Virus record (IMG/VR): IMGVR_UViG_3300033067_000050
Span: 1-29,857 of that record
Direction: 5' to 3' (one strand)
From: a virus
Taxonomy: Duplodnaviria; Caudoviricetes
Length of the DNA stretch: 29,857 nt
Under the pieces are notes generated by a model. That model had not been told where the DNA came from. It did no database searches and saw only the letters and a list, made by a program, of their open reading frames with translations. Below are positions 4,394 to 27,140 of this stretch, piece after piece. Within the stretch, counting starts at the first letter, position 1. Each line of letters starts with the position of its first letter. The position numbers and the translations under genes are program-made.

Positions 4394-4473
4394 GCTACTA
4401 AGTAAACATCTTCTCTAGCTTGTGATAAAGCTAATAGTTTTTCTAGTTTTAAAATAATTTCTTGTTTGTTCAT
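4264..4473 (-). CDS. Hypothetical protein, first gene after an early-type promoter
   Basis: 69-aa ORF with leader AAAAACAAATAACTATG. Confidence 0.8.
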   Translation of the reverse strand: MNKQEIILKLEKLLALSQAREDVYLVANLTDIIAALSKEFDLSDMYAQEIRNALQMDETEQLLKNIKIR

Positions 4474-4481
4474 AGTTATTT

Positions 4482-4549
4482 GTTTTTAATTATAGAACAA
4501 ATATAAAACTTACGTTTGAATAAAAAAACTTTTTAACAAATATTTAACA
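4482..4549 (-). promoter_or_regulatory. Host-sigma (Bacteroidota -7 box) promoter with phased TGTTAA boxes
   Basis: TATATTTG at 4505..4498, then 4 nt, then ATAATTAAAAAC; ttaaca at 4533 and 4544. Confidence 0.8.
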
Positions 4550-7136: not shown

Positions 7137-7437
7137 AATTAAAAAGTTTAGCTTTTATTTTACCTATTTTTGTTTCTATTAATGCAGGTTTAACCTGTAT
7201 ATTTATTTCTACATTAGTTAGTTCATTATCTTGCTTTAAAATCGTTTTAAAAGCTTGTTCAATAACTCCAAAATCTAACTGATCTTCAATATCAATTAAC
7301 TGCTCTATCATTTCTAACTTGAAAGTAATATCATTAAAATAAGCTAGTAGCTCTGAATTATCAGAATTATAAACTAGCATCTTTGCAGTAGTGGTTTTTA
7401 AATCAGAAATATGGTTTTTTATTGTTATTTTTTCCAT
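7120..7437 (-). CDS. Hypothetical protein, predicted leaderless
   Basis: 105-aa ORF; ATG lies 4 nt after TACATTTG. Confidence 0.75.
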   Translation of the reverse strand: MEKITIKNHISDLKTTTAKMLVYNSDNSELLAYFNDITFKLEMIEQLIDIEDQLDFGVIEQAFKTILKQDNELTNVEINIQVKPALIETKIGKIKAKLFNYDIAY

Positions 7438-7478
7438 TGTTCAAATGTATTAATAAATTTTTAATAACTAGATAACTA
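7437..7478 (-). promoter_or_regulatory. Host-sigma promoter with upstream TAGTTATCTAGTT element
   Basis: TACATTTG at 7449..7442; 13-mer at 7478..7466 also found at 10088..10100. Confidence 0.7.
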
Positions 7479-8384
7479 AAAGTCCAATCCTTTAATATTT
7501 TTTGCTTGTAGTAGGTTTACACCTGCATAAGTAAACCCAATATTGTTAGGCATCATTCTTAATTTAATAGGTGCGTCTATTGAGGTTGGTCTACCACCAG
7601 TTTCTACTTCTTTAACTTTTCTAACGTGTACTTCACTAACCATCCAATCAGTTGGGTGCTGAGTATACCTGTGAATAGTAAATACATCATCTGCTCTATT
7701 ACCCCACTTACCACCACCCTCTACATCTGCCATATTTGGTGGAACTGGTAAACCATTATATTCGTGTTCTTTTTGGTGTACTCTTCTTAAAGCTTCTGTT
7801 ACTGCGTGGGTGTTTAACCAAATAGATATACTATTTTCTTTACAGAATAAACGCATTTCACTAGATACCTGATAATCGTATTCGTGGCTACCTACATTTT
7901 TCATTAATTCCTTATCTTTAGCTAGTGAATTATAAGGATCAATTAACAAACCATCATACTTCCATTCGTTATGTATTTCTTTAGCTTCTTTAAGCAAATC
8001 TTTGTAAGTATATAGTTTATCTACATCAATTATTTTAAAGTGCTGTAATACCCAGCTTAAACCATATTCTATTTCATCATCAGTCATTTGCTGTATAGCT
8101 TTATTTCTAGCAAATTCTAGTATTTTTCTAGCTACTGAAGTTGAAGTATTTTCAGATGAAAAGATTAACCACTTAATATTATGTTTTATTGTATACATAG
8201 CCATTAAGTAAAGTATAACAGTTGTTTTACCTACGTTTGCGTGACCAATAATAACATTAAAGTTAGCAGGTTTAAATCTTATATGTTCGTCAAATTCTGG
8301 TATGTTTATTTTAAGCCCTTCTTTTACTCTTCCGTATTTAACGTCAAGTATGTTTTTTTGTATGTCTATTAAATTTGCTAACAT
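7476..8384 (-). CDS. SF4 (DnaB/T7 gp4-like) replicative helicase, helicase domain only
   Basis: Walker A GHANVGKT, FSSEN, LLIDPYN, RADDVFTIHR. Confidence 0.88.
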   Translation of the reverse strand: MLANLIDIQKNILDVKYGRVKEGLKINIPEFDEHIRFKPANFNVIIGHANVGKTTVILYLMAMYTIKHNIKWLIFSSENTSTSVARKILEFARNKAIQQMTDDEIEYGLSWVLQHFKIIDVDKLYTYKDLLKEAKEIHNEWKYDGLLIDPYNSLAKDKELMKNVGSHEYDYQVSSEMRLFCKENSISIWLNTHAVTEALRRVHQKEHEYNGLPVPPNMADVEGGGKWGNRADDVFTIHRYTQHPTDWMVSEVHVRKVKEVETGGRPTSIDAPIKLRMMPNNIGFTYAGVNLLQAKNIKGLDF

Positions 8385-8399
8385 AGTTTTTGTTTGTTT

Positions 8400-9337: not shown

Positions 9338-9513
9338 TACTTTTCTAAATTGTAAATTTGTTGTTTAATAATAGTTTTGTATTCTAAAGGGCAATCATCT
9401 TCACAAAGTTCGAATACATATGTTTTTACTTCGTTAAGGTTTTTTTCTAATTCACAGATTCGCTTTTGTAAAGCTTCTACCTGGAATCTTTGGTAATCGA
9501 TTAAATCTTTCAT
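9337..9513 (-). CDS. Small coiled-coil hypothetical protein, 58 aa (MKDLIDYQRFQVEALQKRICELE...)
   Basis: Translated by hand; follows a promoter leader; TAATG-coupled to ERF. Confidence 0.8.
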   Translation of the reverse strand: MKDLIDYQRFQVEALQKRICELEKNLNEVKTYVFELCEDDCPLEYKTIIKQQIYNLEK

Positions 9514-9523
9514 AGTGTTATTT

Positions 9524-9601
9524 GTTTTTAATTATGAAGCAAATATATAACTATTTTTCTAATACAACACTAACTATTAATACTTTAACATAATTTTAAC
9601 A
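9524..9601 (-). promoter_or_regulatory. Host-sigma promoter with phased TGTTAA boxes
   Basis: TATATTTG at 9547..9540, 4 nt, ATAATTAAAAAC; ttaaca at 9585 and 9596. Confidence 0.8.
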
Positions 9602-9607
9602 TATTGC

Positions 9608-9636
9608 AAAAAAAAAGGGCAGCTGTTACGCTACCC
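9608..9636 (-). terminator. Intrinsic terminator
   Basis: GGGTAGC-GTAACA-GCTGCCC followed by T9. Confidence 0.87.
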
Positions 9637-9663
9637 AATTTCAAACAAAAATTACTATGAAAA

Positions 9664-10041
9664 CTAAGAAATATCTTTTAATTTGTCTTTATAATGTTCT
9701 ATCATATCTTTTATTTCATCTAAACTCCATTTTTTAGTTTGTTTAGTTAGTAAGTATAATTCTTCTGATAGTTCTTTTCCTATTTTTAAGCTAAACTCAA
9801 ATTGTTTTCCCTGCTGCATTACGTTACATCCATAACATTGTGGTGCTACATTTCTTTCATCCCACCTGGTACTCATATACTGCCTACTCATAAAATGCCC
9901 ACAGTGTATCTTTTTAACTTCATAATCACGATCACAAGTAATACATTTGCAATATCCATTAACTGCTTTAGAGTATCTAATATACTTGCTAAATACTGCA
10001 TCTAATTCTTTTACTAGTTGTGATTTTGTTTTAGCTTTCAT
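9664..10041 (-). CDS. ninG: NinG/Rap-like recombination endonuclease
   Basis: LDAVFSKYIR, CITC, HCGHFMSR, TRWDERN..QC..CN. Confidence 0.88.
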   Translation of the reverse strand: MKAKTKSQLVKELDAVFSKYIRYSKAVNGYCKCITCDRDYEVKKIHCGHFMSRQYMSTRWDERNVAPQCYGCNVMQQGKQFEFSLKIGKELSEELYLLTKQTKKWSLDEIKDMIEHYKDKLKDIS

Positions 10042-10053
10042 AGTACAAATGTA
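10041..10053 (-). promoter_or_regulatory. Host-sigma promoter giving a predicted leaderless ninG mRNA
   Basis: TACATTTG-TACT-ATG. Confidence 0.7.
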
Positions 10054-10087: not shown

Positions 10088-10139
10088 TAGTTATCTAGTT
10101 TTTGTAACTTTTTTATATATTTGTCGTATAATTAAAAAC
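10088..10139 (+). promoter_or_regulatory. Divergent plus-strand host-sigma promoter
   Basis: TAGTTATCTAGTT, TATATTTG at 10116..10123, 4 nt, then the same ATAATTAAAAAC seen at three minus-strand promoters. Confidence 0.75.
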
Positions 10140-10284
10140 GGATGCGTCCAAGACTTGCAAAACCTAATAAAAATGGAAGTTGCTTGGATCAGGTAAAATT
10201 AGAATTGTTCTTTTTTCTATAGGGGGTTTTTTCTTTCTTTTCTTTTTCTTTTTTACACTTTTTTCTTTTTCTTTTCTTTCTTTT
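10128..10284 (+). ncRNA. Candidate small RNA or primer RNA (alternatively a 26-aa ORF at 10142..10222)
   Basis: Promoter, imperfect hairpin 10147..10188, G5, then a U-rich tract; inference only. Confidence 0.4.
10229..10284. repeat. Perfect homopyrimidine mirror repeat (H-DNA motif)
   Basis: T4CT3CT4CT5CT6-ACAC-T6CT5CT4CT3CT4; 26-nt arms. Confidence 0.95.
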
Positions 10285-26440: not shown

Positions 26441-26466
26441 AAAAAGGTAGCCATTTCTGACTACCC
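26441..26466 (-). terminator. Intrinsic terminator
   Basis: GGGTAGTCA-GAAA-TGGCTACCT followed by a T-run. Confidence 0.8.
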
Positions 26467-26490
26467 TCTCAACCAATTTAACCTAACTAA

Positions 26491-26709
26491 TTATGAAGCT
26501 CTTTCTCTATAGTATAAATATAGTTCGCTTATTTTATCGTTTAATTCCTGATCCTGTTTATATACTTGTTTACCTTGTATCTTAGATCCGTTTATGTTTA
26601 TTTCTAATCTTACTTTATTTATTTTTCTTTTACCCTCCATATAAAACTCATTTAAGCAAACAGGATAGATTGTTATTCCATTTTCTACACACCATTTAAA
26701 AGCTTCCAT
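26491..26709 (-). CDS. Hypothetical protein (start reassigned to MEAFKW...)
   Basis: ATG at 26709 follows the upstream stop with leader TAAAACAATG; the ORF-track start at 26748 overlaps the upstream gene. Confidence 0.7.
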   Translation of the reverse strand: MEAFKWCVENGITIYPVCLNEFYMEGKRKINKVRLEININGSKIQGKQVYKQDQELNDKISELYLYYRERAS

Positions 26710-26713
26710 TGTT

Positions 26714-26956
26714 TTAGCGTAATCCTTTAAGTATTGCTTCAAGCTCATTTGTTAAAAGTATTTGATTTGTGGTTTTAAAATAATCTCTAAGCTTAGTTAG
26801 TTCTTTTCTAGTGTTAGTTACTTTAGCTTCTAATTCTTTAACGTAATATTTAGCAGCATCACTTTCATTATCTTGGTTATCCCAAAATCTGTCTTCATTA
26901 CTTGGATCGTAATCCATTTCTAAATCGTCTGTAGGATCTTTATAAAATAAAATCAT
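26714..26956 (-). CDS. Hypothetical acidic/coiled-coil protein
   Basis: 80-aa ORF, ATGA-coupled. Confidence 0.7.
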   Translation of the reverse strand: MILFYKDPTDDLEMDYDPSNEDRFWDNQDNESDAAKYYVKELEAKVTNTRKELTKLRDYFKTTNQILLTNELEAILKGLR

Positions 26957-27054
26957 ATTCTAGCTATTTGAGTTATGATATAAATTAAAACTAAATAAGC
27001 AAATGTAAGCTGTGGTCTTTTGTTCTGTAAAAAGAATTTAATAAATGTTTTCAT
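26953..27054 (-). CDS. Small membrane peptide, 33 aa (MKTFIKFFLQNKRPQLTFAYLVLIYIITQIARI)
   Basis: Translated by hand; leader AAAAACAAAAACTATG directly after a promoter. Confidence 0.72.
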   Translation of the reverse strand: MKTFIKFFLQNKRPQLTFAYLVLIYIITQIARI

Positions 27055-27061
27055 AGTTTTT

Positions 27062-27140
27062 GTTTTTAATTATTGTGTAAAGATATAAACCTTTTTTAAA
27101 CTAAAAAATACTTTAACATTTTTTTAAGAAAACTTTAACA
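27062..27140 (-). promoter_or_regulatory. Early-type promoter with three phased boxes
   Basis: TATCTTTA (variant -7 box) at 27085..27078, ATAATTAAAAAC; ttaaca 27113, ttaaga 27124, ttaaca 27135. Confidence 0.75.

Follow-up and report, generated by a model that had tools for sequence, protein, structure and literature searches.

The window analysed here spans an entire viral record (29,857 bases), which CheckV rates as 93% complete, and all of its assigned genes are encoded on the minus strand. The last gene of the structural and lysis block is ninG, which encodes a NinG/Rap junction endonuclease. Behind it stand, in order, a terminator-like hairpin (9636-9617), the box of an early promoter (9547-9540), a gene for 58 aa, ERF, a gene for 97 aa, another terminator, and the gene of a DnaB-like helicase (8384-7476). 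The features around the two ends of ninG are:

10046-10053, minus strand: TAnnTTTG -7 box TACATTTG, 4 nt ahead of the ninG ATG (from sequence)
9664-10041, minus strand: ninG, NinG/Rap junction endonuclease, 125 aa (PF05766, E 7e-14; phrog_5034); its 3' end bears the tract
9641-9666, minus strand: anti-start tract, made up of the ninG stop codon and a U/G-rich 3' UTR, with complementarity to the start regions of early genes and the helicase (from sequence, duplex energies, and conservation)
9608-9636, minus strand: intrinsic terminator-like hairpin (9636-9617) and U9 tail (predicted; stem changes in relatives)
9657-9737, plus strand: antisense ORF of 26 aa that begins at the CAT of the tract, regarded as a by-product (its length varies; no PHROG match)
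9540-9547, minus strand: -7 box TATATTTG belonging to the early promoter that serves gene 9513-9337 (from sequence)

An earlier note on this DNA had drawn attention to the interval between the ninG stop codon and the terminator, and its reading of that interval is correct: the minus strand runs TAG (9666-9664)-TTTTCATAG-TAA-TTTTTGTTTGA (ending at 9641)-AATT, followed by the hairpin and nine T, with 24-26 nt between stop and terminator. Across 17 distinct close relatives, 2 of the 26 tract columns vary versus 14 of 59 in the adjoining non-coding stretch. In relatives the terminator stem changes from GTAGC/GCTGC to GTAAC/GTTAC, so that pairing is kept. Rfam covariance models, including C4 and Flavo-1, gave no match in the whole window at E<=1, and a tRNA scan found nothing.

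The TAnnTTTG boxes, for which the -7 consensus was taken from PMC7366714, and the A-rich starts without a Shine-Dalgarno sequence would point to a Bacteroidota host (PMC7366714, PMC6847099). Adenines at -3, -6, and -11 to -15 are reported in PMC7366714 to favour initiation. Two further early genes have -7 boxes on the minus strand, at 27085-27078 for gene 27054-26953 and at 4505-4498 for gene 4473-4264. Cultured phages show 37% identity or less to the NinG of the window, a genome collection search for ninG returned one distant locus in an Acidobacteriota record, and no Flavobacteriaceae replicon is among the matches listed in plasmid searches. Relatives at 85-99% likeness are present in four metatranscriptomes from 2 studies; these contigs are unstranded and are no evidence of a transcript or of habitat. 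Contigs from one study end at 9658 and 9674, before the terminator, and one from the other study covers 9473-9780.

From the box 4 nt before the ATG and the spacing at the window's early promoters we infer a start site for ninG that predicts a leaderless mRNA of 434 nt ending in the tract. This box is also the nearest one to the tract; no promoter box was found in or just ahead of the ninG UTR of this phage. The same TACATTTG stands exactly 4 nt ahead of the ATG at two genes of the window, 7437 and ninG (7437-7449 and 10041-10053, minus strand), and leaderless mRNAs are predicted for both; the spacing in two other phage records, G005 and G007, is similar.

Pairing of the tract with start regions

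Duplex energies of the 26-mer tract were computed against the 58 called starts of the window, with 200 mononucleotide and 200 dinucleotide shuffles as controls. The strongest values, in kcal/mol, were those of ninG's own start (-19.6), 27054 (-18.7), 8384 (-16.8), 9513 (-15.2), 29685 (-14.9), 18770 (-14.3), 2133 (-13.5), and 4473 (-13.3). That pairing should exceed shuffled controls, as the earlier note's proposal supposed, holds for the top-5 mean (p 0.005 against either kind of shuffle) and for the best value (p 0.020 mononucleotide, 0.015 dinucleotide), and is weaker for the median over all starts (p 0.045 and 0.20). Genome-wide, 4 of the 10 best sites for the tract cover a start, compared with 59 of 860 overall. 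The partners considered below are:

27047-27065, minus strand: predicted target, start of the 33-aa early gene 27054-26953; 10+9 bp, -18.7 kcal/mol
8382-8396, minus strand: predicted target, start of the DnaB-like helicase gene 8384-7476 (DnaB_C, E 4e-9), CAAACAAAAA-CTATG; 10+5 bp, -16.8 kcal/mol; covariation
9507-9529, minus strand: predicted target, start of the next gene, which encodes 58 aa and is the first of the ERF / 8728 / helicase block; -15.2 to -15.5 kcal/mol; cognate covariation
4466-4487, minus strand: predicted weaker target, start of early gene 4473-4264; -13.3 kcal/mol with the 26-mer, -15.5 with a longer tract
10031-10045, minus strand: ninG's own start, TACT-ATGAAAGCTAA, a lineage-specific extra partner; 15 bp with the tract (11 bp if leaderless); no covariation elsewhere

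The leader at 27054, AAACAAAAA-CTATGAAAAC, pairs with the tract over 10+9 bp around a 3-nt bulge exactly as the earlier note had described, and the leaders at 9513, 4473, and 8384, which it had named as partial partners, are plausible targets, that at 4473 ranking eighth. It had overlooked ninG's own start, the best partner in the genome. The tract and every predicted target lie on the same (minus) strand at separate loci, unlike a cis-encoded antisense RNA of the OOP or DonS type, which is transcribed from the strand opposite its target. Opening costs are sizeable, at 7.6-8.6 kcal/mol for the tract and 0.8-4.5 kcal/mol for the targets.

Several other features of the early genes may be noted. 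The 33-aa product of 26953-27054 (minus strand) has a hydrophobic C-terminal half, falls under the usual ORF cut-off, and has no Pfam match. Paired TGTTAAA repeats at 9584-9601, 27112-27140, and 4532-4549 (minus strand; spacings of 11, 22, and 11 bases) stand ahead of exactly those three early promoters whose leaders pair with the tract. Such pairs are also found in relatives L023 and L026, and from their sequence they are a likely binding site for a transcription regulator.

The pairing with ninG's own start suggests a 5'-3' fold-back similar to that of icaR, by which the finished mRNA would hide its own AUG and limit nuclease output. In predicted folds a 73-nt 3' fragment leaves the tract open, and in the complete ninG mRNA the tract pairs with the 5' end, with pair probabilities of 0.74-0.95 over 10 bp. 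The MFE and centroid folds of the whole mRNA both close the two ends, ninG's start ranks 1 of 58 as a partner in the window, and a variant in close relatives L019-L021 retains the pairing through G.U. Against this, a leaderless mRNA leaves 11 bp at -11.4 kcal/mol, one pair is broken in L015, ninG tracts outside the window's clade rank their own gene 8-51, and across lineages the tract and ninG's own start do not covary (p 0.61 in 13 clusters; z +0.18 in 11). We therefore regard fold-back as decidedly unlikely to be what the tract is for, and self-pairing as at most an extra, lineage-specific role.

The earlier note had also allowed for host mRNAs as targets. In a Prevotella replicon, a control distant from the likely host, 6 of 559 starts reach -15 kcal/mol versus 4 of 58 phage starts. 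Targeting of the host is unsupported because each phage's tract specifically fits the leaders of that phage, while the other half of that proposal, a terminator-anchored element aimed at early phage starts, gains from the lineage-specific covariation described below.

Covariation of tract and predicted targets across lineages

Two sets of relatives were compared. The first (two scans) holds 15 ninG clusters at 80% linkage among the matches listed; a terminator was detected behind ninG in 12 of them, 2 with weaker hairpins placed by hand were added, and a terminator-less cluster of 33 loci was left out. The held-out set (three further scans, rules fixed beforehand) holds 183 loci in 34 new clusters among the matches listed, of which the 27 with a detected terminator were used and 7 left out. 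The 33-locus cluster, the L047-L080 group, has no terminator behind ninG, and many of its members carry a conserved GC-rich hairpin-like stretch, GGGGGTCGCGCATCCGTAACGCGA, in the early leader.

Between clusters the UTR sequence is unalignable, yet it is U/G-rich throughout. Survey of related phages for CAT-containing U-rich tracts before terminators, as the earlier note had envisaged, bore out the U-rich part, with a T-rich UTR behind ninG in 27 of 27 held-out clusters and TTGTT in 23 of 27 (10.1 expected). CAT was enriched in T-rich UTRs of the first set (14/25 versus 5.8 expected; control intergenic sequence 42/177 versus 50) and was at chance in the held-out ninG set (9/27 versus 8.6 expected). 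CAT, or CAU in the RNA, which the earlier note took as the defining motif, was dropped for this reason. As far as the sequences indicate, the constant part is a U/G-rich anti-leader, and CAU is not. In the distant control, 800 kb of Prevotella replicon, 9 of 50 pre-terminator UTRs are T-rich compared with 25 of 38 in phages; CAT is not enriched there (20/50 versus 22 expected), and TTCAT is (8/50 versus 2.8).

A same-strand box, TATATTT[G/A] or TATATTGC, lies near the stop codon or in the UTR in 5 of 12 clusters of the first set (0.37 expected), and a promoter box is near the tract in 16 of 27 held-out clusters. Judged by sequence, this is the layout of a putative short RNA gene in the relatives.

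Covariation was assessed by pairing each cluster's tract with every cluster's target start and comparing the diagonal with permutations. The tract fits its own next-gene start with z -4.2 to -5.2 under 9 rule sets (14 clusters), while shuffled tracts give z -0.04 +/- 0.99. The signal is found at offsets 0 and +14, which cover the start codon and first codons, and less strongly at +28; 13 other offsets show none. It was replicated in the held-out set for the next gene (z -5.35, n=27) and for the helicase (z -5.44, n=16). Off-start windows there were null save for +100 at the next gene (z -2.4), where the signal may reach second genes because first genes are short. The homologue of 8728 was null in the held-out set (z +1.6, n=12), and ERF starts were callable in 4 clusters only.

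The next gene shows the strongest covariation, as would be expected from cis insulation, in which late read-through RNA folds the tract onto the following start and only the short promoter-proximal mRNA is translated, a mechanism with precedent in T4 e, soc, and I-TevI (PMC3014915). Consistent with this, the unpaired probability of the 9513 AUG is about 0 in the read-through fold of the window versus 0.63-0.69 in the short mRNA. Shuffled tracts often hide the start too, and did so as well as the real tract in 6 of 15 shuffles in the window; the clusters in which the real tract was clearly better, with at most 2 of 15 shuffles reaching so low a value, number only 5 of 14. The helicase is 0.8-2.2 kb distant, in this phage behind a second terminator, and far leaders fit as well. 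Dedicated promoter boxes ahead of the tract would be superfluous under such a model. For these reasons, cis insulation is unlikely as the general explanation.

Far targets were assessed with 21 orthologous starts, each present in at least six lineages. The helicase was the sole clear case (z -4.64, p 0.0004, about 0.008 corrected; 9 lineages), the next best reaching z -1.8. Promoter-proximal starts lying over 2.5 kb away likewise match the tract of their own genome (z -3.66, 10 genomes), which excludes a local fold for far starts, and other starts show no such fit (z -0.9). Leaders within one genome are alike, so a tract that fits the adjacent leader could fit the far ones as a consequence. 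When all 41 clusters were drawn on for disjoint nearest-relative pairs, the cognate combination was better in 14 of 20 for the next gene and 11 of 15 for the helicase (Wilcoxon p 0.0026 each; control 2/7), with borderline sign tests (p 0.058 and 0.059).

The start tags themselves differ by lineage, ACTATG in this phage and GTATTATG in the L029 group, and individual compensatory cases can be recognised: L036 matches its helicase leader over 19 nt, G015 pairs over 14 bp, and L265 over ~16 nt by eye. The helicase start is paired at -11 kcal/mol or better in 17 of 30 lineages and more weakly in the remaining 13, and the target set therefore varies.

These matches could arise in DNA, with the tract serving as an auxiliary site for a regulator that binds early leaders, or as a recurrent inverted duplicate of a leader with no role as RNA. 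The complementary strand carries a cognate signal too (z -4.1 versus -5.0), and the wobble test did not discriminate between RNA and DNA (G.U to C.A counts of 27:9 cognate and 367:152 non-cognate). The match falls on the start codon and first codons and spares the promoter, offsets -14 to -84 being null, and the orientation is always antisense (direct-repeat control z +0.5). The tract is moreover tied to the terminator, and often to a promoter box of its own, and is more conserved than the adjoining non-coding DNA, all of which makes a DNA-level copy quite unlikely.

An ordinary U-rich 3' UTR could be expected to show some of the pairing as an accident of composition, as any U-rich stretch pairs with A-rich starts. 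When best partners are sought among all starts of a genome, cognate pairs have a weak advantage (20 of 31 tracts, mean z -0.49), and CAT is at chance in the held-out set. Composition is controlled in the cognate permutation tests, however, and T-rich UTRs precede 9 of 50 Prevotella terminators versus 25 of 38 in phages and 27 of 27 behind ninG. A compositional accident is disfavoured, and we give it hardly any weight. Comparison among relatives indicates that the pairing is not by chance. Lineage-specific covariation is much stronger evidence than pairing alone and singles out the helicase start at 8384, and by these sequence comparisons the tract is a real, selected element with evolutionarily predicted targets.

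The plus strand offers a different account, also raised in the earlier note, in which the tract is the true start region of a gene for a 26-aa membrane peptide. The ORF exists, and its ATG at 9657 is the best of 178 plus-strand ATGs when scored with a start-region matrix derived from the 988 called starts of 24 phage records. Its length is 26 aa in 20 of 24 close relatives, but it is shortened to 18 aa in the other 4, ranges from 3 to 26 aa across the 8 clusters having the ATG, and loses its start (ATG to ATA) in L023. A plus-strand promoter box is absent in 14 of 24 relatives and none is shared in the others, the peptide has no PHROG match, and the covariation with the helicase leader is left unexplained. 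We consider this account extremely improbable.

Also on the plus strand, a TATATTTG box at 10116, divergent from the ninG promoter, is followed by a leader of early type, a stem-loop with imperfect pairing, and, at 10173, an ORF of 7 codons with the second-best plus-strand start score (window positions 10116-10205). This unit is found in 9 of the 16 distinct close variants listed, with other sequence in its place in the remainder, and is recognisable in L026, whose NinG is 64% identical. It is a candidate optional non-coding RNA by its sequence, with no Rfam match.

Proposed function and related elements

As the tract covaries with the helicase and early starts, it probably works as RNA that pairs in trans with these starts and lowers their translation. 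More tentatively, there may be a family-wide phage riboregulator in which the tail of the resolvase transcript, or a 55-100 nt RNA made there, silences the helicase and early genes in trans by way of a lineage-specific start tag.

In this phage two kinds of transcript would carry the tract at their 3' end, the leaderless ninG mRNA and late transcripts reading through ninG. No strong terminator was found on the minus strand between 15393 and ninG, so late transcripts would also end in the tract and its level should rise late. In many relatives a promoter box of its own would yield it as an RNA of 55-100 nt. Pairing across roughly -16 to +8 would mask both the AUG and the A-rich determinants, the adenines named above among them, that Bacteroidota ribosomes use in place of a Shine-Dalgarno sequence. 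We infer repression, and with it a timing role: the likely purpose is a timer, in which terminator-protected RNA accumulates and the helicase and early proteins fall while the junction resolvase NinG is made, which would shift the infection from replication to packaging. In this lineage the 5' end of the ninG mRNA can, by prediction, capture the tract, which could limit NinG or gate release of the tract; this is not a family trait.

With respect to trans-acting start-occluding sRNAs, the tract has a seed complementary to the starts of genes elsewhere, found in the sequence, and a predicted 3' intrinsic terminator. The closest systems are GibS and FopS, Bacteroides thetaiotaomicron sRNAs that occlude start codons (PMC7366714, PMC11697453). 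According to the same sources, FopS has canonical sigma-A promoters and one FopS sequence was noted in a phage. Shared with these sRNAs are a probable Bacteroidota setting without Shine-Dalgarno sequences, an AT-rich extended seed, predicted pairing around the start codon, and a predicted intrinsic terminator; their seed is single-stranded, as the tract is in the predicted fold of the 3' fragment but not in that of the full mRNA. GibS and FopS are described, however, as host intergenic sRNAs with a 5'-end seed, conserved sequence, and metabolic targets (PMC7366714, PMC11697453), whereas the tract is a phage 3'-end element with its seed beside the terminator and a sequence that turns over with the phage targets between lineages. 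The likeness concerns a predicted mode of action and does not imply family membership.

Among RNAs derived from 3' UTRs, the known cases include Hfq- and RNase E-dependent host RNAs in Proteobacteria. Like them, the tract shares the terminator of its parent mRNA and could come either from an internal promoter, as in relatives, or from part of the mRNA. The icaR mRNA of Staphylococcus aureus (PMC3868564) similarly has a 3' UTR motif complementary to a translation-initiation region, and the tract is predicted to be able to pair with the start of its own mRNA; icaR as described there acts by an anti-SD motif on its own SD, while the conserved partners of the tract are other genes and its self-pairing belongs to one lineage only. 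In T4 e, soc, 49, and I-TevI, as reported in PMC3014915, the start region is likewise hidden by upstream sequence in long transcripts and open in promoter-proximal ones. The T4 helices are intramolecular, whereas here a terminator lies between the tract and the next gene and partners are kilobases away.

Lambda OOP and LPR1 (bioRxiv 10.1101/2024.10.31.621285) and P1/P7 c4 (PMC8201110) are, like the proposed RNA, phage-encoded base-pairing regulators, and c4 controls a phage gene. They differ in that OOP is antisense to cII-O mRNA, which decays as a result, LPR1, identified on Hfq, activates host dnaN (both bioRxiv 10.1101/2024.10.31.621285), and c4 regulates an antirepressor (PMC8201110). In the accounts cited, none of the three is reported to target a set of start regions that includes a helicase. 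Phage regulatory RNAs described to date are very few according to bioRxiv 10.1101/2024.10.31.621285. In the open-licence PMC and bioRxiv literature, supplements aside, we found no description of phage elements such as this one, and in the open-licence literature of the same two sources none of regulatory RNAs of Bacteroidota phages.

Since seed and targets change together in 41 lineages, targets are predicted from evolution, beyond pairing energy. If the proposal is correct, a tail of 25 nt would let small phages time their genes post-transcriptionally, and the Bacteroidota start region, A-rich and lacking an SD, would serve as an address. It would amount to an RNA-only switch from replication to packaging in a phylum without Shine-Dalgarno use, in which, during co-infection, lineage tags could also confine control to the phage lineage concerned. 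It would further supply a rule for designing synthetic repressor RNAs in Bacteroidota.

Tails of a similar kind occur elsewhere. Behind gene 15965 and before gene 26397 of the window are U-rich terminator tails for which no covarying target survives 21 tests each. A TTTTCATT motif, absent from the window, recurs ahead of the terminator behind the homologue of gene 15965-15438 in G012, G013, G015, G018, and G019. The window has a second anti-start tail at 26443-26522 (minus strand), where CAT overlaps the stop codon of ORF 26748-26491 and is followed by a U/G-rich tract and a terminator (26468-26443). Transcription from a TATATTTA box at 26522-26515 would produce an RNA some 75 nt long; pairing of this tail is only marginally above shuffles, and no covarying target emerged for it among 21 orthologues. 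A host UTR resembling the phage element is found in L240 (Prevotella replicon NC_022111.1), near 7727 on the minus strand of the turned locus, where a stop codon is followed by TTTTTCATAAT, a U-rich tract, and a terminator.
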